The position numbers and the translations under genes were made by a program. Positions 1 through 36,768 of a stretch of 41,466 nucleotides of DNA are shown piece by piece. The notes beneath the pieces were generated by a model. The model searched no databases and was not told the origin of the DNA. It saw only the letters and a list, made by a program, of their open reading frames with translations. The DNA comes from Promethearchaeota archaeon. GTDB lineage: Archaea > Asgardarchaeota > Lokiarchaeia > Sigyniarchaeales > SOKP01. Within the stretch, counting starts at the first letter, position 1; every line of letters begins with the position of its first letter. The DNA lies in assembly GCA_019057865.1 (NCBI GenBank), contig JAHLWP010000038.1, positions 1 through 41,466 on the forward strand. Direction: 5' to 3'.

Positions 1-1519
1 ACTGGTTTAATCCCGAAAAAGGGAAGGCAACATGATCCTGGTTTTGTGGGTGTTGCTGTGGCAATTGGAGTCATGATAAAGCCCCCTGTCTCTGTTAACC
101 AATGTACGCGCTATGCGTCCATTTTTTGCCAGTAAGTATCGACAATGGGGCATTTCTCTTTTCCAACAACTTTGTGATACCAAGTCCAAGCCTCAGGATT
201 ATTCCCAAATACTTGAGAATTCCAAGTATTAATCGGTTCCCCGACTGTGCCTAGGACTTTTAAAGAACTTAAGTCATGTTTCTTAACTGGTTCATCACCA
301 TATCGCATTAGAGCACGTATAGCTGTAGGAGCGGTATAAATTCCCATTTGAGATTGAAATAATCTAAAATAATGAGTTACCTTATGATGTTCGACAATGT
401 CCCAAAACCTGTATCCGTCGATAGAGTAGAAAAACTCTATATCGTCTACGTCAGGATATGTTGGAACACCTTCGAACATCAAACTTGTCGCTCCATTAGC
501 TAACGGTCCGTATACTATGTAGGAATGTCCGGTAATCCAGCCTATATTTCAGCTAAACATAAGGAATTCTTATATTCATCTGCCGTACAATACCAGACAT
601 CACCTTCATGGTAATTAAATACGATTCTATGCGTAAATGACGTATATAATATATAACCTGCTGTTGTATGTTTAACACCTTTTGGTTTTCCAGTTGTTCC
701 ACTTGTATATAAAATAAATAAAGTATCCTCAGAATCCATTGCTTCAGATTCGCATTCATCGCTCATCCCTTCAATAAAATCGTGATACCAAATATCTTTA
801 TCAGTGTGGGGAACTTCTCTGCCAGATCGTTTTACTACGATAACATGCTCTATTGTTGGAACATCATCAATAATTTGAACCACATCTGCTATTTTTGAAT
901 AGAATTTCCCTGCTCTTAAGGTTTCATCGCTGGTGAATAAGAGTCGTGAGTCAGAATCATCGATTCGGCCCTTTACAGCTTCTTTTGAGAAACCACCAAA
1001 AACTATAGAATGAATAACTCCAAGGCGAGCACAAGCAAGCATTATTATTGCTAATTCAGGAACCATAGGTAACCAAATTGTTACACGATCTCCCTTTTTC
1101 AAACCAAGTTTTTTCATACCATTGGCAACTTTATTAACTTCTCTTAATAATTCTGTGTAAGTGTAGGTTTTAACATGTCCTGGCTCGTCAGCTTCCCAAA
1201 TAAGAGCCACCGTATCACCTTTTCCAGCTTTTATATGTCGATCTAAACAGTTGTAAGCAACATTTAGTTTTCCTCCGACAAACCATTTACCAGGAAACAA
1301 TTCTGTTTTTTCCCATACTTTTTCATAAGGCTCGAACCAGTCTAGAGATTTTGCTTGTTCATCCCAAAAACCTTCCATATCTTCAATTGATTGTTTGTAA
1401 AGTTTCTTATATTCTTCTAAAGACATGCCAGATTTAGCAAATTCCTTGTTTAACTTAATAGGATCAAAAATGCGTGTTTCAGTAAGAATACTTTCCATCT
1501 TTTTGTCTTCTTCAGACAT
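1..1519 (-). CDS. acs: Acetyl-CoA synthetase (AMP-forming), intron-containing; exons 580-1519, 446-547, 371-412, 232-340, 125-201, <1-94; 3' end runs off the window
   Basis: Motifs [22 protein letters not shown] and [13 protein letters not shown]. Removing five BHB introns gives one continuous frame: [60 protein letters not shown]...GEPINPEAW...DTYWQTETGG...KPGS. Confidence 0.95.
95..124 (-). other. Relaxed BHB micro-intron 5 in acs (30 nt, contains in-frame TAG)
   Basis: ggca-aa|a-aatggacgc-atagc-gcgtacatt-ggtt-aa|c-agag. Excision restores DTYWQTETGG. Boundary ambiguous by up to 2 nt (97-126 gives the same product); central helix is weak (G-U, G-U, C-G, A.G). Confidence 0.85.
202..231 (-). 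other. Relaxed BHB micro-intron 4 in acs (30 nt, in frame, no stop)
   Basis: accg-at|t-aatacttgg-aattc-tcaagtatt-tggg-aa|t-aatcct: 9-bp intron stem, central helix with an A.G mismatch. Excision restores GEPINPEAW. Boundary can slide a few nt because taat occurs at both ends. Confidence 0.85.
341..370 (-). other. BHB micro-intron 3 in acs (30 nt, in frame, no stop)
   Basis: ggtaa-ctca-tt|a-ttttagatt-atttc-aatctcaaa-tggg-aa|t-ttatacc: central helix ctca/tggg. Excision creates a TTT codon and restores KVTHFYTAPT. Confidence 0.87.
413..445 (-). other. BHB micro-intron 2 in acs (33 nt, in frame, no stop)
   Basis: cctg-acgt-ag|a-cgatatagag-tttttcta-ctctatcg-acgg-at|a-cagg: exon helix cctg/cagg, central helix with one A.G mismatch. 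Excision gives YPDVDRFW. Confidence 0.85.
548..579 (-). other. BHB micro-intron 1 in acs (32 nt, frameshifting)
   Basis: Minus strand ttgta-cggc-ag|a-tgaatataag-aattc-cttatgttta-gctg-aa|a-tatag: 4-bp central helix cggc/gctg, two 3-nt bulges, 10-bp intron stem. Excision restores GCA GAT ATA GGC TGG (A-D-I-G-W). Confidence 0.92.
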
Positions 1520-1762
1520 AACATTTCATTTCTTTGAATTTTATTATATTTGAATTATTTTATGTTATATTTTTTGTTAATACATTAAAAATTTTAAAGA
1601 TTCATGTTCAGTCTCATCGTAATTAAAATTATTATTTTAATAAGACGAGAATAAGTCAAAAAATAGATATATTAAATCATTTTTAAACATTTTATTTATA
1701 ATTTCAAAAAAAATATATAAAGCCATATAATAATATTTAAATTATTTGAATGATTATAATAT

Positions 1763-3046
1763 TTGATTATGGATGCTAAAAAGTTGAATGGGTATATTTC
1801 CAGATATTTAACCAAACTTAAATCAAGTGAAAACAACATCGAAGAATATTATCTAAAGAAATTGACTGGATTATCACTTGGGACTCAACTATATTGTTTA
1901 CTATCAATGTGTAAGTTGTTTGAAACTGATGAACAAAGAAATATGAGTGGAAGATTTAAACCAAATAATGTAATATTGGAACATGCAGATGTAAATCAGT
2001 TGACTAAAGAGAATATATTTGATTTGTTAAGATGCAAATAGTATAAATCTCTTAAACCACAGACTCAACAATTACATATTAGAAGAATAAGACAATATCT
2101 AAAACATTCTAAAAGAGATGATTTAGAAGAATTATTACCAAAAAAATTTAAAATTGACGCAAAACAACTGAGTAAAACTGACCTAATAACAAGAGATGAT
2201 TTAGAATTAATTTTTAAATTTAGTAATTTATGGGGAAGGACTTTAGTAATGGTGATGTATGAAGGGGCATTGAGACGAGATGAATTATTAAGTATTAGAA
2301 AGAAAGATATAAAATTTGAACGTGGATATGCTATATTAAAAATTGTTCAATCAAAAACTGCTAAAAGAGACATTCCATTAGTTGAAAGCATACCTTATTT
2401 GAAAGAATATTTTGATAATAACTATTTTGAGTCAAATGATTTAATATTTCCTTATAAAGAAGCACATTTTCTAAATATGTATCTTAATGACCTTAAAAAC
2501 AAAATAGCAAAGAAATATCCCGAATGGAAGAACAAAAAAATATATCCACATTTGTTTAGACATTCAAGATTGACAGAATTGGCTTTATCAAAACTTAATG
2601 AACCCCAATTGAGAAAAATAGCAGGGTGGACAGCAAATTCTGATATGCCTAAAATTTATTTTCATTTAGATGATAGTGATATAATTAGTATTATGACAAA
2701 TAATGCAGTACAAAAACCAGAACCAAAAAGCGTTAAATTAGTTATATGTCCCGTCTGTAATATTGAAAATACAGAGCAAAGTACTTTCTGTTGGAAATGT
2801 AATAATATACTCAATGAAGAAAAGAGAAAAGAAGCTGGAATACAATTAATTACGCAATCAGATGAAATAAGAGAACTAAAGAATAAATTGAATGGTATGG
2901 AGAAAATAATTTTAATGTTAGAGGGGTTGTATACTCATCAAATAATCAAAGATAAATACCCAGATATTGAAATTGATAAAGATATCAATGTAACAAATAT
3001 AATTACAAAAGAATTCAATAAAATGTTTGAAAAAGATAAGGAATAA
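1763..3046 (+). pseudogene. Tyrosine recombinase/integrase with C-terminal Zn ribbon, interrupted by one in-frame TAG at 2039-2041
   Basis: ORFs 1763-2041 and 2249-3046 share a frame that is open between them. Catalytic motifs YEGALRRDEL, SKT, HLFRHS, GW...MPKIYFH; CPVC...CWKC. Confidence 0.85.
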
Positions 3047-3091
3047 TTAATTTTTTTTGTACAATCATTTTCATTTCTTCTTTTTTGGTTC

Positions 3092-3571
3092 TTAGCTTCC
3101 TTTAGTTCTCCTTTCACAAATCAATTTATAAATACCAAAAACAAAACAAATTAAAGAGGGTATAAAAAAAATAAGAACAACAGGAACTATCAACAAATAA
3201 ATCAAAGAATACTTTAAAGCAAAAATAATTTGTGAAGTTAAGAACAGAGATGTAAAAATAAGAATTGGTAAGCTTACTGCAATAATTAAATAATATATAT
3301 ATCTCCTGTTATTACCATATAATGATTTATATTTTACTATACCATATAAACCAATAGGAATAAGAAATAAACTCACAAAAAACATCATATATATATAAAT
3401 TACTAATAATCCCAATACTAAGAATATCAATCCAATAATAAGTAATGCAATCGATAAATAGTATATTTGTTTATTTTTCTTATCGATCATTTTTATATCA
3501 TCAGAATTCATACCTTCACTCTCATCTTCCTTTTCAGAAATACTCTTCACCATGAATCTTAAATTATCCAA
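3092..3571 (-). CDS. Hypothetical membrane protein (about 4 TM)
   Basis: 159-aa ORF with four hydrophobic segments. Confidence 0.6.
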   Translation of the reverse strand: MDNLRFMVKSISEKEDESEGMNSDDIKMIDKKNKQIYYLSIALLIIGLIFLVLGLLVIYIYMMFFVSLFLIPIGLYGIVKYKSLYGNNRRYIYYLIIAVSLPILIFTSLFLTSQIIFALKYSLIYLLIVPVVLIFFIPSLICFVFGIYKLICERRTKGS

Positions 3572-3641
3572 TTTTGTAAATAATCCTATAATTATAATTT
3601 TGGATTATTTATAAATACATTTAATCATTCATATGAATTGG

Positions 3642-3671
3642 ATAATCATTTAGACATGTTTAGATGATTAT
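3642..3671. repeat. 30-bp imperfect palindrome
   Basis: ataatcattta-gacatgtt-tagatgattat; arms match at 10/11 positions. Confidence 0.7.
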
Positions 3672-3777
3672 TTTCGAGTTTTGAATCAATTTTTCAAAAA
3701 TCCCCGTACCCTTAATAGACAGATGATTGAAAAAAATGTATTTTTTTGTCCATATTATTTATCAAAAAAAAGTGAAA

Positions 3778-4137
3778 TTATACTGCTCCTAATATCTCTA
3801 TTATTGCTCTTAATGTCGTTAAATAATCTTGAGCCTGTCTTCTTGTTACACCAATTTTATTTATTGTATAATCATCTAAATCTTGAACAGACAAAGCATC
3901 TAAAAGACATAACATTCTCTGACAACCAAATTCCATATGTCTAAAATCAAACACTCTTGGCTTGGCAATCACTTTCTTTTCAAACTCAATCATATCAGAT
4001 GATATAATTTCAGCAAACTTAATTAATTTTTTGAAGCATTTTGTATTCATCTTTTTTATAGCATTGCTTCTTTTTTTATCTATTTTTTCTAACATCTTTA
4101 ACCCTCGTTTTACTTTTTCTTTCTTTGCCATAACCAA
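3778..4137 (-). CDS. Hypothetical protein, possible C-terminal HTH
   Basis: 119-aa ORF overlapping the upstream gene; INKIGVTRRQAQDYL resembles an HTH. Confidence 0.55.
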   Translation of the reverse strand: MVMAKKEKVKRGLKMLEKIDKKRSNAIKKMNTKCFKKLIKFAEIISSDMIEFEKKVIAKPRVFDFRHMEFGCQRMLCLLDALSVQDLDDYTINKIGVTRRQAQDYLTTLRAIIEILGAV

Positions 4138-4613
4138 TATTCGAAGTTGCCTGTTATTTTTCCAGCATGAATGGCGTTTTTATTGGTTTCTTTTTCGAAT
4201 TGGCACATTAGATTAGTTTTGGGCTTATTCCACACTTGTCCTTTTTTGTGTTTACTTTTTGGCTTACTCCGAGGTTGTCTTTTTTTATGTTGTGGCTTTC
4301 TTACTTTTGTTAATGGTATTTTATTCAACTCTACTTCTAATCTTTTAATCATATATTCTATATGTCTATTTATGTGAATTTGAACCCTTACTGGTAATTT
4401 ATTAAGAAATTTTGGATGATACTGGTTCATAACATTATAGACTAATTTTTGATAAATTTCTATTCTATAATATGATCTATCATAATATCCTTTAGCTGGT
4501 GGTTTAATTGGATTAATTGGTATCTTGATTTTTTCTCTTATATCAACTTTTTTATCTAAAACTCTATTTAAATGAATTATAATATCTTTAATTCCATGTA
4601 TAGCAGCCGATAT
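4110..4613 (-). CDS. Basic hypothetical protein, probably extending upstream of the called ATG (4430) to an ATA start
   Basis: Frame stays open for more than 60 protein-like codons upstream (ISAAIHGIKDIIIHLNRVLDKK...) with no ATG/GTG/TTG. Confidence 0.5.
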   Translation of the reverse strand: MSAAIHGIKDIIIHLNRVLDKKVDIREKIKIPINPIKPPAKGYYDRSYYRIEIYQKLVYNVMNQYHPKFLNKLPVRVQIHINRHIEYMIKRLEVELNKIPLTKVRKPQHKKRQPRSKPKSKHKKGQVWNKPKTNLMCQFEKETNKNAIHAGKITGNFEYWLWQRKKK

Positions 4614-4979
4614 AATAAATATAATAAATATGAAAGAATATTTGAGTTGAAATTAAGAAAAAAATTGTTTATTTAATTTTTTTATTATTAATTCTAAATC
4701 TTAGAGAAGATTAAAAGAATTATGATATATATTGAATTATTGTTGGGTATTCTATTATTATAATTTAGAGTGTAGTGTTAGAAGTTAAATAATAAGTTAT
4801 ATATCTTTCGAGTATCGGGAAATAACAGGTATTTTTGAATATGTTCTTAATTTTTTATAATATATAATTATTGATATTTATTTGAAAAGAATCGATGAAA
4901 AAATAGGTAAAAAATAGATTTTTTGAAAATTTCAAATATATTTTTCAAAATTAATTTAAATACAGATCTTAAACTTAAA

Positions 4980-5369
4980 CTAATCTTTTTTTGAAACCTT
5001 TTGGGAAATATCTGTTGGATATTCTCTTTCTTTATAATTCTCAAATCTCTTTAGTGTATCATTTATATTCTCTAATCTATATTCTAAATCATCAATTTTA
5101 TCGACAATTTTTGCAAGATTCGTATCAGGTCCTTCAATAATATTCTTAGCACTTTTTCTATTATCTGCTTTTATAGCTAACTTATGAACAGCATCATCAA
5201 ATACTTTCCGATCAATTTCATTTTTGCGAAATTTTTCAATTTTCTTAGCGAGTTTATTGATTTTCCAATTACTTAATATATACTTAATAGCAGCGACCGA
5301 CGTAATAAATAATAAAATTAAGGAAATTATTTGAACAATTAAATTAAGAACTTCAATTTCAAGTGTCAT
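4980..5369 (-). CDS. Hypothetical protein, N-terminal TM plus coiled coil
   Basis: 129-aa ORF with a hydrophobic N-terminus. Confidence 0.6.
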   Translation of the reverse strand: MTLEIEVLNLIVQIISLILLFITSVAAIKYILSNWKINKLAKKIEKFRKNEIDRKVFDDAVHKLAIKADNRKSAKNIIEGPDTNLAKIVDKIDDLEYRLENINDTLKRFENYKEREYPTDISQKVSKKD

Positions 5370-5510
5370 TTTTAAAAAGTGGATAATTTGTTTTTTAGTT
5401 AATAAATTATTGAAATGCTATTTAATAATTGTTATTAATTGAGAAATTATTCAAGTCTTTACCTTCATCAGATAAATTAAATCGTTTGTAAAAGTCTTTA
5501 AACACTAATT

Positions 5511-5655
5511 TTAATTTTCTGACTTTTCTTCAGAATCAAGAATTTCTTTAGCTTTATCTCTAAGAATTTCATTAAGAAATTCAGCTGTTGACCTATAACC
5601 CAATTCAGGATGGTTATTCAAATACTTCTTAAAAACTTCAAATATTCTACGATTA
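5511..5655 (-). pseudogene. Ribbon-helix-helix (CopG-like) gene remnant
   Basis: IFEVFKKYLNNHPELGYRSTAEFLNEILRDKAKEILDSEEKSEN* aligns by eye with the ORF at 11084-11260; no N-terminal strand or canonical start in frame. Confidence 0.55.
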
Positions 5656-5744
5656 TTTTAGAATCACAAATACATAAAAAATTAAAATTAATATATCTTA
5701 AATTATTGTAAGATAAAAAAGACAAAAAATGGAAGTGAAATTAT

Positions 5745-6512
5745 TTGGAGCTTGAAAATATTTTTAATATTGGATGCCTTTTGGGGAATTGTAAAATATG
5801 GACAATATCACCTAAACCTTTTGACTCTCCTTTTTATCAGACAATACTAATCCCTTTAAATATACTAAAAAACAAATTAGAAAATTTAGAAATCCAAGAA
5901 TATGGTAATGAGGTAATAGATATTCTTAAACAAAAAAAAGACAATGAAGAAGAACTGAGTAAAAAAGATATTGAGAAATTAAATAAACGCCTAAAACAAT
6001 TACTTAAAGAATTAATAGAAAATTTAATTAAAAGAATTCCTATTTGGGAAGACAGAATTATTAATGAGTTGATTAAAATTAAAGTAGTGAAGTTATCTAC
6101 TGATACAATTCTAAATCCAGAAAAACTTTCACTTGGAGCAGAATTATTTTTCGATATAAAAATTTGGGATAAAATGTCAAATCTTGAGAAAGATGACTTA
6201 GATGACGGTTGTCGGTGTATTTCATTACAAGCGTGGACTCCAGCTGCGATGATTACAATGAGGGTTATAGAATCGGTTTTAAGAAATTATTACCAGAAAA
6301 TTACTTCAAATGATCCAGTAGGTAAAATGTGGGGATCTATGTTAATTGAATTGAAAAATCATCAATCTGCTAATCAAAAATTAGTTGAATATTTTGATTA
6401 TCTTAAAGATATTAGAAATTCAATCCAACATCCTGATGTAAGATTTTCACAATTTGAAGCTGAAGATACTTTTCATCATGCAATTCATATTTTAAATACA
6501 TTTTATTCTTAA
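5745..6512 (+). CDS. Hypothetical protein with C-terminal HEPN/DUF4145-like domain
   Basis: AAMITMRVIESVLR helix and an Rx4H motif (RNSIQH). Confidence 0.6.
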   Translation: MELENIFNIGCLLGNCKIWTISPKPFDSPFYQTILIPLNILKNKLENLEIQEYGNEVIDILKQKKDNEEELSKKDIEKLNKRLKQLLKELIENLIKRIPIWEDRIINELIKIKVVKLSTDTILNPEKLSLGAELFFDIKIWDKMSNLEKDDLDDGCRCISLQAWTPAAMITMRVIESVLRNYYQKITSNDPVGKMWGSMLIELKNHQSANQKLVEYFDYLKDIRNSIQHPDVRFSQFEAEDTFHHAIHILNTFYS

Positions 6513-7210
6513 TTTTATATACATTTTTTTACTTTTATTTTATAATATGTTTTAATTAGCAGGGAAGAAACTAACAAAAAAATTTTTAGTCAGTATTTTT
6601 CGCAACAATAAATTATTATTATGATATATTCATTTCAACGCCAAATTCAGTTTCAAGATTTAATCTTGAAGTTGAAATTTCATCAACTATTTTTATTGAT
6701 GGGCTATCTATTTTTAAAATCTTCTGTTTAACTAATAAATTCAAACTTGAATTAATAATGGATTATCGAAACATCATTCAAAAAAAATATGTACAAATTG
6801 ATGATAGATTGAAAATTTTTGGAATGAATTATATTTATTCTTTGTTCTAAAAATTCTAAATTTTTTTGCCTTATCCACTTCAATTTCTTGATATTAATTT
6901 TTTGATAAAATCGTGTTTTTGACATTCTCACACTGTCTACTCTTTTAAATTAACATAAAATACACCATCGAGTAGACACGGTCTAATCCCTATGTAATCG
7001 ATTTTTTATTTAATATATATATTTTGGAGATCAAACTATATGAAATAAAGAATTTTAGTTTTCATATAAATCCAAATCTGTTTGTAGATTAACTGAAAAG
7101 CTACATGAACATATGGATTTATATATGATAACATTTTCTAATTATTTAATAAAATTTATTTTAAAAACCAATGATTAAAATAATCAAAATTAAAGTTGGA
7201 GGTATAGAAT

Positions 7211-7621
7211 ATGACAAAAAATGAAAAAGAAGTAAAAAAGAAAGTCCAATTGACTCTTAACGGTTTAAAAACTGGTATGGTCATTAAAGATTTGCACGGG
7301 GAAGATGTAGAAATCACAGAAAATTTAGTGGAACAGATGAAAGCATTTGAAAAAGATACTAAGAAATCAGCGATTTGGAGAAATAGAATAACAGGGAACT
7401 TCTTATTGTACAAATGGACAAAAGAAAATCCAGAAGAGAAGAAAATTAAAGAAGTTATTGAGGAAGAGTTAGAGGAAGCAATAGAGGAAGAAGTAAAAGA
7501 CGAAGAAAATATGTTATTGGATTGTATTGCTGATTATAAAGTAGAATATAATGTAAAGACGGTTAAAACAGATTCCAAAAAGTTCAAAGCCTTTTTTGAG
7601 AAATGGAAGAAAGAGAATTAA
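7211..7621 (+). CDS. Hypothetical charged protein
   Basis: 136-aa ORF, GGAGGT SD upstream, T-tract downstream. Confidence 0.7.
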   Translation: MTKNEKEVKKKVQLTLNGLKTGMVIKDLHGEDVEITENLVEQMKAFEKDTKKSAIWRNRITGNFLLYKWTKENPEEKKIKEVIEEELEEAIEEEVKDEENMLLDCIADYKVEYNVKTVKTDSKKFKAFFEKWKKEN

Positions 7622-7943
7622 TTTTTTTTCTTCAAACAAATTGTTTTATATTATTAGTTATTCTTTTTTTGCTTTTGTAGCCTTTTTTCTAAAAGTTCTA
7701 ATTCTTAAATATTTTTGTAGAAATCGTGTTTTTTTCTCTCAAATTAGAATAAAAATGAAGATTTAAATTAACTAGTTTTATTATATTAATGTCTTTATAG
7801 AGCTCTCTATAAGAATCCCTATAAGAATATATTTTAATTAAATTACAAAAACTAACAATTAAATTAATTTTTTTTATTGTAAGATGTTTGAAATTATCAA
7901 ACTCCAATTAAAATAAAAATATAAAAGAGGAAGTGATAAATAA

Positions 7944-8264
7944 ATGTATTTTAAATTACATGGAAGAAGATTCATATTATTAGGAATATGGTTATTTTTA
8001 ATGAGTTTATTAATATTTATATGGTTTATTAATTATTTTATCATAAATATTTTGTTATACTGTATAATTTTTATAGTATGTGCTGGAGTTCTTTTAATAA
8101 AAATAATAAATTCCTTTAAAATTAGTATTGATTGTATACATCTCCCTCTTTTTTTTATAATCCCTTTTATTATTATATGGTTTGTTTGGTATTTTTATGA
8201 TTTTATAATTTTTAATATAATTTTTGTTATATGTGATTTAATAATTGTAATAAAAATCTATTAA
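7944..8264 (+). CDS. Hypothetical membrane protein
   Basis: Hydrophobic 106-aa ORF with GAGGAAGTGA SD. Confidence 0.5.
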   Translation: MYFKLHGRRFILLGIWLFLMSLLIFIWFINYFIINILLYCIIFIVCAGVLLIKIINSFKISIDCIHLPLFFIIPFIIIWFVWYFYDFIIFNIIFVICDLIIVIKIY

Positions 8265-8325
8265 TATTTTATTTAAAAGACATTCAAAATTTTCTTTTCT
8301 AAGAAGTGGATAATAAAAAAAGGAG

Positions 8326-8847
8326 GTGATAAAAAGGGTGAGTGAAATAAAAATATCTAATAACGATATAGGCATATCTGGTGAATTCTATATAGCACAT
8401 GTATTAGCTAAGCATGGATTTAAAGTTAATGTGTCATTAGGCAGAACAGAAGGATTTGATTTATTTGTCCAGAATCCAAATGGTGTGAATATAACTATTT
8501 CAGTTAAGACCACTCGGTTAAAGACAAGTAAGTCCTTTATAATGGGGAAAAGAGCTGATACATTAATTAACGAATATTTATTCTATGCTTTTGTTAGGTT
8601 AAATCTACCAGATGATATTCCAGAATTTTGGATAATTCCCTCTACAGTGGTTGCACCTATGATTAGAGAATCACATTTAATCTGGTTGAAAACACCAGGA
8701 AAGAATGGTGTAGCACATAAAGACACTTCAATGAGGGTATTACATTTGGATAATCATCAACTTTTCCCTAAAAACTGGGAAGAACAATTAGTTCGTTTTA
8801 AAAGTAATATAGAATCATTAAAAGAATTAAAACCAAACAGGAGGTGA
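8326..8847 (+). CDS. PD-(D/E)XK-family endonuclease-like protein (true start may be GTG at 8338)
   Basis: GISGEFYIAHVL...GFDL...ISVKT restriction-fold signature. Confidence 0.7.
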   Translation: MIKRVSEIKISNNDIGISGEFYIAHVLAKHGFKVNVSLGRTEGFDLFVQNPNGVNITISVKTTRLKTSKSFIMGKRADTLINEYLFYAFVRLNLPDDIPEFWIIPSTVVAPMIRESHLIWLKTPGKNGVAHKDTSMRVLHLDNHQLFPKNWEEQLVRFKSNIESLKELKPNRR

Positions 8848-8851
8848 TAAA

Positions 8852-9115
8852 ATGAGTAGAACTATAAGACCATTGCCGATAGGATTATTAGTTGTGTTTG
8901 TAGTTATTGGTGTTGTATTTTTTATTAGTGCTGCTTATTGGAACTGGATTATGAGTGAACAAGAAATTAAAGAACTTATTAAATTAGATACTACGGGATT
9001 TAGTAAGAATTTAGTTGATTTCTTTTTCTCATTCTTCATAGCTATGGGGATTATTTTCTTAGTACTTGGATTAATATTATATCTAATGAGCTTTGAATAT
9101 GAATGGAGAGATTAA
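8852..9115 (+). CDS. Small 2-TM membrane protein
   Basis: GGAGGTGA SD and two hydrophobic helices. Confidence 0.6.
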   Translation: MSRTIRPLPIGLLVVFVVIGVVFFISAAYWNWIMSEQEIKELIKLDTTGFSKNLVDFFFSFFIAMGIIFLVLGLILYLMSFEYEWRD

Positions 9116-9121
9116 AATGAG

Positions 9122-9571
9122 GTGAGAAAAATATCAGAAACGCCTGAAATTGAAATAATATTAAATAGTGAAGAATTAGATTGGTTAGATTATGGAAATG
9201 GTTTTTGTTCTTTAGATGATTTACCCAGAAAAGATTATAATGATATTTCTTGGGCTGTAAAAGAAAAATTAAGAGTTTCATATACAAAAGAAGCAGAGCT
9301 AAAAGATGAATATAAAATAAAACTAACAAAAAAAGAAATTGATTATATCCAAGAAATCCTTACAGATTTAATCTGTGATGAATATCATTACTGGAATAAT
9401 TCAATAATAAATCTTGATAAATCAGAAATAAAAGTGAAATTAGTTTACCAAGAAACTCTTAATGAAATTATTGAATCTATACCTATGACTAACAAGATTT
9501 TTAAAAAATTAGGAATACCAATTCTTACATTAGATTTTATTAAAAACAAACCAGAATACCAAGAAAATTAA
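9122..9571 (+). CDS. Hypothetical protein
   Basis: 149-aa ORF in an operon-like run. Confidence 0.6.
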   Translation: MRKISETPEIEIILNSEELDWLDYGNGFCSLDDLPRKDYNDISWAVKEKLRVSYTKEAELKDEYKIKLTKKEIDYIQEILTDLICDEYHYWNNSIINLDKSEIKVKLVYQETLNEIIESIPMTNKIFKKLGIPILTLDFIKNKPEYQEN

Positions 9572-9601
9572 ATTACAAATAGAGGAGGTGGTTAAAAAAG
9601 A

Positions 9602-9949
9602 ATGAGCAAATATGATTTAAAACCATTCAATAAAAGGAGTATACCTAAGTTTGAATTTCCAAATGGGAAAATAGAATACGGTGAGTTAATAGATGAAGTT
9701 TATGTTGATAGTAGAGACATAGATGAGAATACGACAGGTGTTATTTATAGGAATTTAGTTCAGAAAATTAGATTAGAAGAACATTTGGAAACATTCAGAT
9801 TCTGCTATTATACCATAAATCTCGATAATGATAATCCAAGTTGGAGATATAAACAACATGCTTTAATGGTTACCGAGGAACAACTCAAAGAACTATTCAA
9901 TAAAATGATTAAGAAAGGATGGTTAAACATAGACATTAAATTCATTTAA
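9602..9949 (+). CDS. Hypothetical protein
   Basis: 115-aa ORF, GGAGGTG SD, T-tract after the stop. Confidence 0.65.
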   Translation: MSKYDLKPFNKRSIPKFEFPNGKIEYGELIDEVYVDSRDIDENTTGVIYRNLVQKIRLEEHLETFRFCYYTINLDNDNPSWRYKQHALMVTEEQLKELFNKMIKKGWLNIDIKFI

Positions 9950-10242
9950 TTTTTTTTTCTTTAAACTTGAGTTGAATTAAATTATATTAAAATTACTTAA
10001 TTTCATATCAAAATCTATTCGAAATTTATTTAATATTGGATTTTTGGACAATAATATTAAAGATTTTATATATTCATCTAATTTAATGATATTACCGAAT
10101 TTTTTTTCTTTTATCATTATTGTTTAATGGATTAATAATTTCCAAAAGAAAAATTTAAATATTCACAGAGCCTTAGTATGCGTGGAGGTTATTTTAGATG
10201 TTTATAAGAATAAATTAATAAAAAATAAGGAAGTGATAAAAA

Positions 10243-10854
10243 ATGGTTGTAAATAAGGAGTATTATGAAGAGATAAGACAAACTGATGGGTTTTTTATAC
10301 CATCAATGAAAATGTTAATAGAAGACCAATATGAATATTTAACAGATAAAAAATCTCATAAATTAAGTGAAGTTGTAGAATATTTTTCCAATCTATATAA
10401 TCTTTCTAAAGAAGAAAGGAAAAAATGTAATACAGGATCAATCGAACCTCTAATAAAATTTAGAATACGAAGGAATTATGAATTTTTAATGTTAAATGGG
10501 TTTGTTATACGACCAGCTCCAGCAACATTTCAAGCAACTGATTTTATAGATGAGTGGATTAAGTATGATAAACATGAACTAAGTAGTGATTATATTATCA
10601 AATTTAAATATAATTATCCAGAACTTATGAAGAAAATTAGGGTTATTGAGAAAATTATTTCAACTAATTCTTACGAAAATAATAATAGAACAATTAAGAA
10701 TTGTAGGTCTAAAAAAAATGAATTTTTAAATTTTTTAATTGCCACAATAATAGATTATGATGTTCCAGATAATAGAATTAGAGAAGTAATAGAATATGCT
10801 TTAGACTTGAATTATAATACTAATAATGAAAGAGATATTGTCCCTCTTATATAA
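10243..10854 (+). CDS. Winged-helix protein resembling the Mrr N-terminal domain
   Basis: LTDKKSHKLSEVVEYFSNLYNLSKEER...FRIRRNYEFLMLNGFVIRPAPATFQAT matches the Mrr_N pattern; no Mrr catalytic domain recognised. Confidence 0.6.
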   Translation: MVVNKEYYEEIRQTDGFFIPSMKMLIEDQYEYLTDKKSHKLSEVVEYFSNLYNLSKEERKKCNTGSIEPLIKFRIRRNYEFLMLNGFVIRPAPATFQATDFIDEWIKYDKHELSSDYIIKFKYNYPELMKKIRVIEKIISTNSYENNNRTIKNCRSKKNEFLNFLIATIIDYDVPDNRIREVIEYALDLNYNTNNERDIVPLI

Positions 10855-11083
10855 ATATTAATGGTCACATAACTTTTTTTATTGAAAATTAAAAAAAATT
10901 TATTCATTTAATTTCTTTCTTATATTAATTCAATATTTTTTCTTTTTATTTGAGCCTAAGTCTAAATCTAACAATTCTTAAAATTATATTCAAAACTTTT
11001 ATGGGACATTAATGGTTTCATAAAAATCATAGTATTGAATTTTTGATGATTTAGAAAATTAGGAATAGACAAACATAAATTTT

Positions 11084-11260
11084 TTAATCTTTTTCTTTTT
11101 TTGTTAGTAAAACTTCTTGTGCCTTTAATCTAATTACTTCTTTTAAGTACATTGAAACATTAGTATAACCCAATTGTGGATTTGACTCAATATATTCTTT
11201 AAACACATGATATAATGCTCTGGGAATTTTCAAGTCATATTTTTCAGTTTTAGAACTCAT
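11084..11260 (-). CDS. Ribbon-helix-helix (CopG-like) regulator, 58 aa, below the ORF-track cutoff
   Basis: MSSKTEKYDLKIPRALYHVFKEYIESNPQLGYTNVSMYLKEVIRLKAQEVLLTKKEKD*; strand-helix-GY-helix pattern; divergent from the ParB-like gene. Confidence 0.7.
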   Translation of the reverse strand: MSSKTEKYDLKIPRALYHVFKEYIESNPQLGYTNVSMYLKEVIRLKAQEVLLTKKEKD

Positions 11261-11471
11261 TATGTGTTAAATAAATCACAGAATTATAAAAATCTTTCAT
11301 TTTATCATACAAATTTATCAAAAAAGTAAATTTTCCTTATGAAAAATATATGAAAATCATCAGATGATAAAACTCTACATAAATAACAAATTATATTCTA
11401 TTTATCTGACAAAAAGGATTAAATAATAATTCAATTATCTTATAAATGTTATAAATCAAAAATTTAAAAAA

Positions 11472-12677
11472 GTGAAAAAAATGACAGAAACAAAACAATA
11501 TTTATTCCATGAGTTGTCTTCATATCTTCCATTATTAGAAGGTGAAGAATTTGATGATTTAGTAGAGGATATTAAACAACATGGACAAATAGAGCCTGTC
11601 ACTCTTTATGAAGGTAAGATACTTGATGGGAGAAATCGGTATAGAGCTTGTAAGATATTAAAACAAGAATTAATAATAAGAGAATGGAAGCCAAGTAAAG
11701 CAACTGGATCTACACCGTTACAGTATGTTATCAGTGAGAATATTATGAGAAGGCATTTAAATGCTGCGCAAAAGACGGAAATTGGGCTATTGTTATATGA
11801 TGAGATCGCAAAGCAAGTAGAAGAAGAACGAAGAAAAAAGCAAAGTGAAACAATGAAAGAACAATATAGAAAAGGTGAACGGGAAAGTATAGGAATAGGT
11901 TCTATAATTAAAGATAAATCAATAATTACACCAAAAAAAGACGATTGGACATCTACTGCTAAACAGGTTGCCCAGAAAGTTAGAGTTAAACCTGATATGA
12001 TAAAAAGAGGTAAGAAAATTAAAGAAGTCATAGCCAAAGACGATAAGGAAATTGAAGAAATGTGGGAGGATGCTAAAAGAGGAGAAACGACTGTAGGTGC
12101 GGTATATAAGGAAGCTCTGGAGAAGGAAATTATTGAGGAACTACCTCCAGATTTAAAAGAAGAAGTAAAGAAGGAGAAAGCTAAAGTCAAAAAAGCTAAA
12201 AAGGAAAAATCTACTTATAAACCAAAAATTACAGCAAGAAAAGCCCAAGCTATAAAAGATTTACCCAAAGATGTACGAAAAGCTGTAGTACATTCAAAAG
12301 CGGAAATAACAATTGAAGAAGCTGAAGCAATTGCTGAAATTCCAAGTGAAATTCTAAGAAAACAAGAAATAGTTGAACGTGAAAGAGCAAAGGAACGACA
12401 ATTATCAGAAGTTAAAAAGAAGAAAGATTTGGCAGAAGGAAAAATAATACCTAAACCCAAATTTTTTGATAAAGATGTCAGTAAAATAGAAACAGTTAGA
12501 AGTATTTGTAAAAATGCAGTTGAAACTCTTACTATAGCTGGCTTAGAGGGTTATGGTGATTTAGCCAGGAAAGAATGTATCAAAATGATGAAAATTCTAT
12601 TTGAACATCTAAGAAAAGAATTAAAGAAAGCAGGAGAAGTGGCACCTAAAAAGGTGATAGAAATTGGCACAGATTAA
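11472..12677 (+). CDS. ParB/Srx-like N-terminal domain protein with HTH and charged C-terminus
   Basis: LVEDIKQHGQIEPV...ILDGRNRYRAC...VISENIMRRHL, typical of MGE ParB-like proteins. Confidence 0.85.
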   Translation: MKKMTETKQYLFHELSSYLPLLEGEEFDDLVEDIKQHGQIEPVTLYEGKILDGRNRYRACKILKQELIIREWKPSKATGSTPLQYVISENIMRRHLNAAQKTEIGLLLYDEIAKQVEEERRKKQSETMKEQYRKGERESIGIGSIIKDKSIITPKKDDWTSTAKQVAQKVRVKPDMIKRGKKIKEVIAKDDKEIEEMWEDAKRGETTVGAVYKEALEKEIIEELPPDLKEEVKKEKAKVKKAKKEKSTYKPKITARKAQAIKDLPKDVRKAVVHSKAEITIEEAEAIAEIPSEILRKQEIVERERAKERQLSEVKKKKDLAEGKIIPKPKFFDKDVSKIETVRSICKNAVETLTIAGLEGYGDLARKECIKMMKILFEHLRKELKKAGEVAPKKVIEIGTD

Positions 12678-13344
12678 AGTTGAAGATGTTAAAGAAGTTA
12701 TTACTGAAATGCTTAATCAGAATCAAATAGTTAATAAAGATTCCATATGTATGTATATGGGTCTTGACCCCATTGAATGTTATCCACCCACAGAGGAAGG
12801 AGGAATGCCCAAGTATATCTACAATAACAACACTATATATGGATGTATAAATAAGCTTAGACAGTTATGTATAGAATGGCGAAATAAAAAAAAAGAATAT
12901 TATGAAGAATGGAAATCCGATTTTAAAAAGGCAGCAAAATGGGATCCAAACTTAAGAAAGCTGATTATGCATAATACTGTTATGACCTATAAAACATTCT
13001 TTGATAAGAGAATGGAATCATTAAACTTGTCGAAGGGTATGTTTTTAATACCAGTTAAAATAAAAATTGGGATAAATTCCATTACAACATATATAAAGCC
13101 AAATAAAGAAGAAGAGAGAAGATGGGCTATAAGAAATTCTGAATCTAAAGGAAAGGGATTCAGAACTACTCTGATTACAGGTGGCGAATTAGGATATATT
13201 GATTTAGATAGAAGCACACGAAAATTCTTAGATAAACTGGGTTCTGGGAAGTTTTTGAAATATAAAAAGATAGAATCCGAAGATTTGGATTCAGAAGAAG
13301 AAATCGAAAGGGAGAATGAAGAAATTGAAGGAGAGATCCAATAG
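12664..13344 (+). CDS. Hypothetical protein overlapping the ParB-like gene
   Basis: 226-aa ORF, AGGTGA SD, 14-nt overlap. Confidence 0.65.
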   Translation: MAQIKVEDVKEVITEMLNQNQIVNKDSICMYMGLDPIECYPPTEEGGMPKYIYNNNTIYGCINKLRQLCIEWRNKKKEYYEEWKSDFKKAAKWDPNLRKLIMHNTVMTYKTFFDKRMESLNLSKGMFLIPVKIKIGINSITTYIKPNKEEERRWAIRNSESKGKGFRTTLITGGELGYIDLDRSTRKFLDKLGSGKFLKYKKIESEDLDSEEEIERENEEIEGEIQ

Positions 13345-13573
13345 GATCAATTATGATCATAATCCATATAAAGATCTTTTTAATCCCTTAAACCTTAGAC
13401 CAATAGAAGTTGTTACTGAACTTTTGTCCAAGGAGAAGGATCCAGTACTTTTTAAAAAATTACGATATGAAAAACGACTCATATATTTAGATTGGTTTTG
13501 GACTAATGCCATCGATTTTGAAACATTCAAAAAACTCATTAAAGGATATATAATTTTATTTAATTTTATTTAA
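13316..13573 (+). CDS. Small hypothetical protein
   Basis: 85-aa ORF in an operon-like run. Confidence 0.45.
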   Translation: MKKLKERSNRINYDHNPYKDLFNPLNLRPIEVVTELLSKEKDPVLFKKLRYEKRLIYLDWFWTNAIDFETFKKLIKGYIILFNFI

Positions 13574-13587
13574 TTATTTTTTTTTTT

Positions 13588-13956
13588 TTGATTGAAATGA
13601 CATTTATATGCTGGTTTTGTCGTAGGGAAATAATAATTAAATTTAAGAATGCAGATATTGGTATTTGCTGGAAATGTGGCAAAGAATTTGGTCCTTACGC
13701 TGCTGAAAGTAGAAGCAATAAGGATCCAAGTATCTGGAAATATTGTTCTAAGGACTGTAGGTATCCAAAATTTTGTGATGATAAATGTGAGGCGTCTTTT
13801 AGAAAAATATTGAAAAAGTGGCATAGAATGTTAGATTATACTTATATGAGATCGAATGGAATTGAGAAAGCAAAAATTCGAATTTATAAATATGGTATAC
13901 TAACAATATTGGGTATTCTTATTATTTTTATTATTATTCATTCTATGTTAATGTAA
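13588..13956 (+). CDS. Cys-rich Zn-finger protein with C-terminal TM
   Basis: CWFC, CWKC, CSKDC and C-x3-C motifs; hydrophobic tail. Confidence 0.6.
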   Translation: MIEMTFICWFCRREIIIKFKNADIGICWKCGKEFGPYAAESRSNKDPSIWKYCSKDCRYPKFCDDKCEASFRKILKKWHRMLDYTYMRSNGIEKAKIRIYKYGILTILGILIIFIIIHSMLM

Positions 13957-14079
13957 ATGACTAAAGAATTATATTGTTCTGAATGTGGTGTTCCGTTGGG
14001 TGATCTTAAAACTTCTGGTTGGTATTATTGTCCTATATGTGATGATATGAAATATTTTATAAATGGAGATGATAATTGA
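13957..14079 (+). CDS. 40-aa Zn-ribbon microprotein
   Basis: MTKELYCSECGVPLGDLKTSGWYYCPICDDMKYFINGDDN*; ATG directly follows the upstream stop. Confidence 0.65.
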   Translation: MTKELYCSECGVPLGDLKTSGWYYCPICDDMKYFINGDDN

Positions 14080-14150
14080 TAATTTTATCATCAAACTTTA
14101 CATGTAATAAATATTAAAAATAATTAAGATTTATAAAAGAGATATGAAAT

Positions 14151-14390
14151 ATGAGTACTATAAAAGAAATTATGTCCATAGGAGAAATAGAGGATGATAT
14201 TAAACAAGTAAAAGATTTATGGAGCAAAATCATAGATAAATATAATGATAAATTTTCACATACTTCGATATATAGTGAGTTTTTATGTGATGATGAAAGA
14301 TCAAAGGTGGCAAGAGATATCTTCAGAAATTTAGATCAATATGTAAGTATAATCAAAAAATATTATTATATGGAAATACACAGTACTTAG
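14151..14390 (+). CDS. Small hypothetical protein
   Basis: 79-aa ORF. Confidence 0.5.
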   Translation: MSTIKEIMSIGEIEDDIKQVKDLWSKIIDKYNDKFSHTSIYSEFLCDDERSKVARDIFRNLDQYVSIIKKYYYMEIHST

Positions 14391-14768
14391 TAAGTTACTT
14401 AACCTTTTGGATTTTTATGATAATTTACATTGGAATTTATTATTCTCAACATTATTTATTTAAAAATTAATATCAAAGTAAACTCATAAATGTTTGAATA
14501 TGTAAATTCAAAACTCTTAATGGAAAATGATAGTTTTTTGAAAATTGGAATTTTATATTTTAGTGATTTTAAAAAATTAAAATCTTTATATAATCTATAT
14601 TTTTGAAGATCCCTTTAAATTTTTTATATCCTTACAGATACTTGAAAAAAAAATTATTATATTCATACATATATTATCAAAAAAATTATATGGATAAAAG
14701 AGGATATAATAAATTTATTCAATATAATTTTAATAAAATAAAATCTATTTTTAGCTTGAGCATTTAAA

Positions 14769-16679: not shown

Positions 16680-18111
16680 TTAATCAGCTAAAAAAACTCA
16701 AAAAAACTTCTAAAAGGCTTTTTTATGAAGGAGTTAATAGAATGAAACTTATCTAAATTGCTAAAATTTAAATCTAAATTAAAATACATTTATTTGCTTT
16801 TTTAATAAAGATTTTAAATAAAAATTAGAAGGTGATCTAAATAGTTATTATAAATTCTGAAGGCAAATTTGATGACAATTATTATCTTATAGATGGAATG
16901 ACAATGGGATTACCCAAATTTCTTTCAATTTACATTGTTGAAAACAATGGTATGCGACTAATGATTGATGTTGGGGAAGCATTAAAAGCTCGAACAATCA
17001 TAAAAAAACTCAAAGATTTCGGTCTTTATCCTATTCATAAAATCCTCTTGACTCATTCTCATTGGGATCATGCTCAAGGGCTCTCAAAATTGGTTAACCT
17101 AATGAAAGACTTGGATGTAGAAATTTTAGCTTCAGAAAACGCGGTTGAAAATTTAAAACATCCAGAAAAAACGATTGAAGGATACGAGGGAATTAAGTCA
17201 TATCCTTTTGAAGAAGAGGTTACACCATTGAGAGAAGGTGATTTCATAGATTTAAATGGATTAGAATTAGAGATCAAGAATTTTTTTGGGCATACGATGG
17301 ATTCTATTGGAATTTTTGACAAAACAAATAGAAATATATTCGCAGGAGACGCATTCATTATGAGATTAGCCCAAGATGCTTTTTTTATACCTCTCATGCC
17401 CCCTGATTTCCATGAACAAGAACTCCTCAAGACTTTTGTTAAATTACGAGAAATGAGAAATGAGTTGAACTCCATCTCTTTAGCTCATTTTGGAGTATGG
17501 AAAGATAATCACTTTGAACAAATTTTAAATGAAATGGAAGATCTCTACTTTAATACAAAAACCTCACTAATAGAATGGTATAATGAAAATCCATCAATTG
17601 AGGTTATAACTGGTAAGTACTGTAGAAAATTTTTGTCCGCCTCTAAATTTTGGAACGAGAAAGTATTTGCATTTCTTATAGATTATATGATAAACGGTTT
17701 AAAGTTGAGTGGGTTTATTGAAGGAGAAACAACATTATATTAATTGACCATATTCACTTTATTTCTAAAAAGCAATCTTTCTTACTCAATTATCCCAAGG
17801 TCTTTTAATAGTATTAACATAATTACTCTAGTTATTCCTGGATCAGCTTGACTTTTAGTTTTCCCTATAAACCTCTCTATTAACAAACTTCTTGGTTGTA
17901 CTGACCAGTAGGTTAAATGCGTGAAATGTAGAAATACATCATTCGAAATATAGTTGACGTAAAATGACAGATCTAATTGCCTTTTATTTATATTGTCCCT
18001 ATTGTCAAAAGTCAGATATAGGATTTTCATCAATTATTCAATTATTACAAGTAAAAAAAGCACATTTGTTATCACCAAGAATTATTTTATGAAGTCTTTT
18101 TTGATAAAGAA
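16641..18111 (+). repeat. 24-bp perfect direct repeat (16641-16664 and 18088-18111) duplicating the 3' end of the hydrolase-GNAT gene
   Basis: tatgaagtcttttttgataaagaa at both sites; the second copy translates QELFYEVFFDKENSME* versus KELFYEVFFDKEDSTN*. Confidence 0.85.
16841..17743 (+). CDS. Metallo-beta-lactamase fold hydrolase, probable ATA start at 16841 (first ATG at 16898)
   Basis: THSHWDH, GHT, AGD, LAHFG motifs; GGTGA SD 5 nt before the ATA. Confidence 0.88.
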   Translation: MVIINSEGKFDDNYYLIDGMTMGLPKFLSIYIVENNGMRLMIDVGEALKARTIIKKLKDFGLYPIHKILLTHSHWDHAQGLSKLVNLMKDLDVEILASENAVENLKHPEKTIEGYEGIKSYPFEEEVTPLREGDFIDLNGLELEIKNFFGHTMDSIGIFDKTNRNIFAGDAFIMRLAQDAFFIPLMPPDFHEQELLKTFVKLREMRNELNSISLAHFGVWKDNHFEQILNEMEDLYFNTKTSLIEWYNENPSIEVITGKYCRKFLSASKFWNEKVFAFLIDYMINGLKLSGFIEGETTLY

Positions 18112-36540: not shown

Positions 36541-36768
36541 AATATCTTCTATTTAGTTAGTAGGCATTTTATTCAATTTTTTCTATATTAATATTAGTTC
36601 TTTAATTCTTTAAATATTAATATTCGTATAATTAAAATTAGAAAACGTTAACTTTATTATGAAAAAAAAGAAAATCTTGGAGAAAATATTAAAGTCTATA
36701 AGAAAAAACTTAAAAATCGTAAAATTAAAAAATCTTCCTAACTACTTAATATATGGTGAAAATTTAAA

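Follow-up and report, generated by a model that had tools for sequence, protein, structure and literature searches.

Can a gene whose conserved coding sequence is interrupted at five places still direct the synthesis of a complete enzyme? The question is raised by acs, the gene for acetyl-CoA synthetase (ACS), at one end of a stretch of Promethearchaeota DNA of 41,466 nucleotides (nt) (contig JAHLWP010000038.1 of assembly GCA_019057865.1). The whole stretch is called the window here, its contig C82 and its genome G000. To our knowledge, the textbook archaeon has uninterrupted protein genes. The proposed answer is that the five acs inserts represent introns of the bulge-helix-bulge (BHB) type spliced by the endonuclease EndA and the ligase RtcB, with a probability of about 0.85; splicing itself is predicted from the genome sequence. 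An initial annotation of the same DNA had offered this reading. The geometry of the inserts, their presence or absence at given sites in relatives, compensatory changes, selection on the exons and the occurrence of an EndA pair with RtcB all supported it.

Five short inserts in the acs gene

The acs gene lies on the minus strand of the window from 1519 to 1, where the contig ends within the gene. The final 222 codons are located on another contig of the genome, C39, which overlaps C82 by exactly 55 nt. No further inserts were found in the C39 part of the gene. Gene callers reported acs as a fragment of 325 amino acids (aa) plus pieces. The open reading frame (ORF) from 1519 comprises 313 codons of real ACS and 12 insert-encoded codons up to a stop, and carries the Pfam domains ACAS_N and AMP-binding. 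After exon 1, translation in another frame aligned to solved ACS structures with an E value of about 1e-33. In this frame-2 translation, inserts 2, 3 and 4 appeared as gaps of 11, 10 and 10 residues, respectively. The exons and inserts, all on the minus strand, were as follows.

Exon 1: 580..1519, minus strand, 940 nt; start codon 1519-1517; encodes ACAS_N and the initial portion of the AMP-binding domain (ORF, Pfam)
Intron 1: 579-548, minus strand, 32 nt, shifts the frame; central helix CGGC with GCUG, 4/4 paired; inner hairpin 10 bp; outer helix 5 bp
Exon 2: 446..547, minus strand, 102 nt; IGWITGHSY...PTYPDV
Intron 2: 445-413, minus strand, 33 nt, in frame and stop-free; central helix 3/4 (A.G)
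Exon 3: 371..412, minus strand, 42 nt
Intron 3: 370-341, minus strand, 30 nt, in frame and stop-free; central helix CUCA with UGGG, 4/4; same site in relative L047
Exon 4: 232..340, minus strand, 109 nt; ends in ...GEPI
Intron 4: 231-202, minus strand, 30 nt, in frame and stop-free; central helix 3/4 (A.G); inner hairpin 9 bp
Exon 5: 125..201, minus strand, 77 nt
Intron 5: 124-95, minus strand, 30 nt, with an in-frame TAG; central helix 3/4 (A.G)
Exon 6: 1..94, minus strand, the first 94 nt of this exon (TETGGF...), which continues on C39

The initial annotation had placed five disruptions at 95-579, as hairpins of 30–33 nt. It had counted one frameshift, one TAG and three odd insertions of 10–11 aa, and had given internal exons of 102, 42, 109 and 77 nt. 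Protein alignment and geometry confirmed the five disruptions at these places. The frameshift was traced to insert 1 and the TAG to insert 5, the three insertions corresponded to the alignment gaps of 11, 10 and 10 residues, and the same exon lengths were obtained.

The inserts sit within the core motifs FYTAPTA, GEPINP and WQTETG. The joined reading gave a continuous frame with conserved ACS motifs, including GEPINPEAW and YWQTETGG. At all five junctions, frame and motifs were restored with no residue gained or lost relative to intron-less orthologs. The predicted exon joins include ACGGCAG/ATATAGG and ACTCATT/TTTATACC, where the slash marks the join.

Intron boundaries were fixed first from the protein alignment, and the RNA was then checked for fit to the BHB motif. 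The rule applied, as stated for the archaeal gene cbf5 in PMC2738675, requires a central helix of 4 bp between the 5' exon and the intron 3' end. Each of its strands is followed on the 3' side by a bulge of 3 nt, in which the cut falls behind the second nucleotide. This register fitted at 5/5 acs sites, and shifted registers with an identical product did not fit. In all five inserts, two 3-nt bulges on opposite strands flank the central helix. Cutting after the second bulge nucleotide restored conserved ACS motifs at every junction, as had been claimed. When the helices were re-computed, the pairing described earlier was recovered: the central helix was fully paired (4/4) at introns 1 and 3, and at introns 2, 4 and 5 it had three of four pairs, the terminal position being A.G. 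Since this mismatch occurs in 3/5 central helices, the motifs concerned are relaxed rather than strict. Intron 1 belongs to the strict helix-bulge-helix-bulge-helix type (hBHBh').

The inner hairpin of the intron had 8–10 paired positions at every site, with runs of up to 10. The outer exon-exon helix had 3–5 of its first 5 pairs and was weakest at intron 4. The background frequency of such structures was determined over the whole genome. The loosest BHB criteria were met by 0.19% of all pairs of position and length (674,196 of 2 x 4,263,694 x 41). Given this background, the fit of 5/5 boundaries that had been fixed beforehand is far beyond chance.

Distribution among relatives and the mosaic structure of acs

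The relatives of the window genome are metagenome-assembled genomes (MAGs) of Promethearchaeota (Loki-type Asgard), in agreement with the earlier description of the organism as Asgard-like. About 55 acs orthologs of the genus, with 77–95% protein identity, were compared. About 47 of them had an uninterrupted frame of 661–662 aa, including that of the closest relative, G012 (95% protein identity). Inserts at identical sites were present in seven other assemblies from unrelated studies, distributed as follows.

L047: sites 1, 3, 4 and 5; a site after nt 1429; a 42-nt BHB insert 6 nt upstream of site 2
L074: sites 1, 4 and 5; a further site after nt 1515
L077: sites 4 and 5
L034, L058, L071 and L078: site 5 only

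An alignment of acs from sister genomes had been proposed as a check, and it showed precise presence or absence of the introns at identical sites among congeners. L047 carries six introns on one contig. The site 5 intron was found in 8 of the approximately 55 orthologs examined. The genus has at least eight distinct acs intron sites, all beyond nt 940 and at conserved motifs. Orthologs in other families of the order (52–58% identity) had no inserts at these sites. Two other insertions, absent from the genus of the window, were observed in the acs genes L025-L032 of those families: one of about 11 aa (CLIDLKG...) that follows residue 304, and another of 7 aa (GEKPVGR) that follows residue 415. 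These are coding insertions conserved as peptides, unlike the interiors of the acs introns.

Orthologous intron interiors were nearly unrelated in sequence, and their pairing was kept; at intron 1, L047 and L074 share the site and the interiors differ. At site 5 (8 copies), 5/9 hairpin pairs had changed on both sides, and 82.6% of the cells were paired against 33–47% with slid partners. At site 4 (4 copies), 6/9 pairs had changed on both sides, and 81.9% of the cells were paired against 25–54%. The covariation scores were 0.345 (site 5) and 0.574 (site 4), compared with 0.04–0.19 in slid controls. The A.G in the central helix of site 5 is replaced by A-U in L074 and L077, which gives 4/4 pairs there. 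Copies of one intron were stop-free in some genomes and contained stops in others: the intron 4 copy of L077 has an in-frame TAG, unlike the stop-free copy in G000. Since the same intron is open in one genome and contains a stop in another, its sequence is not selected as protein.

In a tree of the acs 3' segment, G000 grouped with L074 (support 93), and the intron-bearing alleles were scattered. Intron presence required 7 changes on this tree, and the well-supported branches force at least 2. Neither a single origin of the introns nor their lateral spread was shown by the scattered alleles.

The acs gene of G000 is a mosaic. Its DNA is 93–100% identical to that of G012 up to about nt 880, with a synonymous divergence (dS) of 0.145, and 77–82% identical beyond that point, with dS above 2. 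The acs 3' end on C39 is 85% identical to G012 and the DNA downstream 77%, compared with 89–97% for the rest of the window. All five introns lie in the segment whose divergence from the nearest relative greatly exceeds that of exon 1. The jump at about nt 880 points to either allele replacement or a chimeric contig.

The two readings differ in the source of the intron-bearing segment. It is possible, though doubtful, that C82 is chimeric and that a strain closely related to G012 supplied exon 1 together with the remainder of the window. The last 640 nt or so, with all five introns, and C39 would then come from a second, more distant congener in the sample; this too we regard as doubtful. The five-intron allele would in that case be unlinked to this promoter and this genome, a tentative conclusion that is compatible with real introns. 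The step in identity and dS within acs and the low identity of C39 and the DNA downstream of acs favour a chimera. The exact 55-nt overlap, typical of an assembly-graph branch, and a bin contamination of 5% point the same way. However, the switch lies inside the contig and not at its end, and a real allele replacement by recombination yields the same pattern. Moreover, the synonymous positions of the intron-1 exon flanks match other intron-1-bearing alleles and not G012, as co-conversion predicts, and L047 independently has six introns on one contig. In the other reading, recombination brought in the intron-rich segment and its flanks together, which would be a route of intron spread. The mosaic does not affect the reality of the introns. 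All of them fall within 485 nt of a single contig, and they are seen again in independent assemblies.

Additional partial copies of the acs 3' end were observed on another contig of the genome (G000:C48:37787-38050 and 36569-36733). One of them covers residues 572-659 with 95% protein identity to the ACS of G012, with 2 TAA reported inside the match. These copies could be the remnant of a rearrangement or of an acs-targeting element, and could explain the assembly break. Directly upstream of acs, a stretch of 12.9 kb (about 1752-14669) is absent from G012 and from a further relative, G041, in which its flanks are contiguous. It is probably an integrated element, since it begins with a tyrosine-recombinase (Phage_integrase) gene; the frame of this gene (1763-3046) contains one in-frame TAG at 2039-2041. 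Two shorter stretches of the window, 17788-18035 (about 250 nt) and 22594-23070 (about 480 nt), also have no counterpart in the otherwise collinear DNA of G012 and G041.

Purifying selection and other explanations of the inserts

The ratio of nonsynonymous to synonymous divergence (dN/dS) of exons 2–6 was 0.02–0.07 in every comparison, which indicated strong purifying selection. A test of exon selection had been suggested earlier, and its result showed that the exons are not decaying neutrally. Beyond the five inserts, no other lesions were found in acs. Among the genes of the genome, acs alone makes up the AcsA model, with three pieces of 366, 310 and 194 bits; the next AcsA paralog reached 280 bits against a cut-off of 725.

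These results bear on the view that acs is a decaying pseudogene in which small palindromic or mobile elements have left hairpin-forming insertions, and nothing is spliced. One insert shifts the frame, one carries a stop, and the gene lies at a contig end adjoining the 12.9-kb element, all of which would suit a pseudogene. The low dN/dS of an otherwise undamaged gene speaks against decay, as does the absence of another AcsA from the genome. Inserts at the same sites have been retained in lineages whose synonymous divergence is saturated, and the changes in the stems of the inserts are compensatory. No other copies of the inserts exist in the genome, and the exact BHB register would be an unexplained coincidence. 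The pseudogene is therefore considered very improbable.

The inserts might also be kept in the mRNA, with the in-frame ones translated as loops of 10–11 aa and the frame-breaking ones skipped by ribosomal bypassing. Short hairpin inserts that interrupt conserved coding sequence without killing the gene exist as bypass elements, in T4 gene 60 and as 'byps' in the mitochondria of Magnusiomyces. For translational bypass, the take-off and landing codons have to match, and the mRNA itself stays intact. The acs inserts resemble such elements in being hairpins of tens of nt that break the frame, and inserts 2, 3 and 4 are in frame and stop-free in this genome. However, the codon match is lacking and an exact BHB register is present instead. 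Direct repeats at the boundaries were 0–2 nt at introns 1, 2, 3 and 5, and at intron 1, where the take-off codon is GCA, the triplet 32 nt further downstream is TGA. As to translation of the inserts, the encoded 'peptides' were unconserved, the same insert was open in one genome and contained a stop in another, and loops of 10 aa are unlikely inside core motifs of a solved fold. There is hardly any likelihood left for this explanation.

Three further candidates were rejected: an assembly artefact, because the same-site inserts occur in seven independent assemblies from different studies; a repeated mobile hairpin element (like a miniature inverted-repeat transposable element or a Rickettsia palindromic element), because each insert matched only itself at full length in the 4.26-Mb genome; and a group I or group II self-splicing intron, which needs a ribozyme core of hundreds of nt, whereas the inserts are simple hairpins of 30–33 nt.

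Several observations weigh against BHB splicing of acs. Introns 2, 4 and 5, with one A.G each, are relaxed and not strict BHBs. In most isolated intron fragments of 58–61 nt, the BHB was not the minimum-free-energy fold. The BHB conformation lay 1.3–11 kcal/mol above the minimum, and z-scores against shuffled sequences were modest, at -0.8 to -2.2. RNAfold favoured symmetric internal loops or other pairings for the acs introns. The non-minimum fold is a weak point of the splicing interpretation; BHB motifs are read by protein and not by thermodynamics alone. The intron-bearing segment may also belong to a co-assembled strain. In addition, structure-plus-ORF scans of the genome gave equal pass rates for the canonical 3/4/3 geometry and eleven control geometries. 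These scans covered both strands and introns of 20–60 nt with BHB geometry, and excision had to join two otherwise broken open frames. Their pass rates did not rise with stricter structure, and only acs intron 1 was convincing among the strict hits. Displacing both cut sites leaves the frame relation unchanged and was therefore no valid control. Adjacent genes and the many AT-rich hairpins swamp the signal of the scans.

Splicing machinery, further genes and known introns

The window genome (4.26 Mb, 99.7% complete) contains two EndA genes, on contigs C71 and C69, and one intact RtcB gene. The catalytic Tyr/His/Lys are all retained in the alpha EndA, whose closest counterpart is the catalytic subunit of the Aeropyrum pernix heterotetramer (3P1Z_B). 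The other EndA carries Ser in place of the catalytic His, which suggests a structural, beta-like subunit of the heterotetramer type. This type has been associated with relaxed BHB motifs and with the splicing of cbf5 (PMC2738675; PMC5829648). ARAGORN detected only 30 tRNA genes in the genome, of which at least 18 contain introns; these measure 11–61 nt, apart from two of 876 and 1582 nt. The program probably misses many tRNA genes whose introns lie at non-canonical positions. The proportion of 18/30 is in line with the heavily interrupted Asgard tRNA genes reported in PMC11291895.

The following course of splicing is proposed for acs. The last four exon nucleotides before a 2-nt overhang would pair with four nucleotides near the intron 3' end and form the central helix. 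This helix would be closed on the inside by the intron hairpin of 9–10 bp and on the outside by the short exon-exon helix. The alpha and His-less beta-like EndA, of a type known for its broad substrate range, would cut after the second bulge nucleotide. RtcB would then join the exons and would probably circularise the introns of 30–33 nt. The resulting mRNA would encode an ordinary ACS of about 660 aa. Cleavage, ligation and their efficiency are deduced here from genomic data. Within the genus, the acs introns would have been gained, lost or moved quickly.

The occurrence of similar introns in other genes was investigated by aligning the window with the syntenic DNA of G012 and G041, of which 27 kb were comparable. 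One further intron was found, in a paralog of elongation factor 2 (EF-2). Elsewhere in the genome, a gene similar to leuS was fragmented by several short inserts.

EF-2 paralog intron: 40903-40874, minus strand, 30 nt, with an in-frame TAA, in the switch-I region; central helix UCAG with CUGA, perfect
leuS-like gene: G000:C49:5000-8000, plus strand, fragmented by several short inserts

The EF-2 paralog gene extends over about 38810-41040, and its intron is absent from the syntenic gene of G041. Of the EF-2 and acs introns folded with RNAfold, the EF-2 intron was the only one with the canonical BHB as its minimum-energy fold. Another EF-2 copy, on G000:C87, is uninterrupted. At least two breaks of the leuS-like gene are BHB inserts, at 5260 (28 nt) and 6048 (30 nt). 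Their excision rejoins the conserved motifs GMPAE/NAAI and GNFV/IYEYGAGAVMAVPAHD of leucyl-tRNA synthetase. A separate, intact archaeal leuS lies at C1:28378-31242. The initial annotation had described the organism as having intron-dense protein genes in general. The EF-2 paralog and the leuS-like gene extend the finding beyond acs; the genome-wide scans yielded no count that would bear out the general statement.

No report of BHB introns in Asgard protein genes was found in the literature searched, in which coverage of subscription journals was limited. Within this literature, BHB introns in coding sequence were reported only for crenarchaeal cbf5 (PMC2738675). The gene cbf5 encodes a pseudouridine synthase, and its intron is located in the pre-mRNA of Crenarchaeota (Watanabe 2002; Yoshinari 2006; Yokobori 2009, PMC2738675). 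The other case is a BHB intron in the 5' untranslated region (UTR) of Haloferax volcanii HVO_1309, whose mRNA is cut by the splicing endonuclease and whose excised intron is circular (PMC7714728). In 2020, cbf5 was named as the only other mRNA example (PMC7714728). With cbf5 and this one Haloferax 5' UTR intron, the literature searched agrees with the earlier statement that known archaeal mRNA introns are rare and mostly single. Asgard tRNA genes have many non-canonical intron positions and repeated gains, and the papers describing them contain no report of protein-gene introns (PMC11291895; bioRxiv 10.64898/2026.10.13.758758).

The acs introns share with that of cbf5 a short BHB intron in coding sequence, a cut between the second and third bulge nucleotides, an often relaxed motif, a link to a hetero-oligomeric (alpha-beta) endonuclease and lineage-specific loss. 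They differ in number and distribution: cbf5 has one intron at one site in one gene of another phylum, whereas acs has five introns in one metabolic gene and at least eight sites in the genus. Unlike in cbf5, presence or absence differs between genomes 95% identical in protein, and other genes of the same genome are also affected. The splicing of cbf5 was shown by cDNA; that of acs is predicted. The Haloferax intron is a single case in an untranslated leader, whereas the acs introns lie in coding sequence. Archaeal tRNA and rRNA introns have the same BHB motif, presumably the same EndA/RtcB machinery and similar sizes. Unlike them, the acs introns have an mRNA as host, so that codons make up the exon side of the motif and single-nucleotide precision in splicing is needed to preserve the frame. 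The acs case is thus a known mechanism in a new host class of RNA, at unprecedented density and turnover.

It appears somewhat probable that the ordinary protein genes of Promethearchaeota harbour a dynamic population of micro-introns spliced by the endonuclease. These introns would accumulate at conserved motifs, several per gene, be gained, lost or shifted between relatives, and be co-converted with their exon flanks in a homing-like manner. Because gene callers split or truncate intron-bearing genes, metabolic reconstructions of Asgard MAGs are biased. If Promethearchaeota carry such an intron population, a working exon-intron architecture without a spliceosome would exist in the closest archaeal relatives of eukaryotes. 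A metabolic gene dependent on five exact splicing events would demonstrate that mRNAs of several exons can be sustained by the tRNA-splicing machinery. Fast intron turnover between close relatives would occur in the lineage nearest to eukaryotes, and intron gain, sliding and load before the spliceosome would become directly testable questions.

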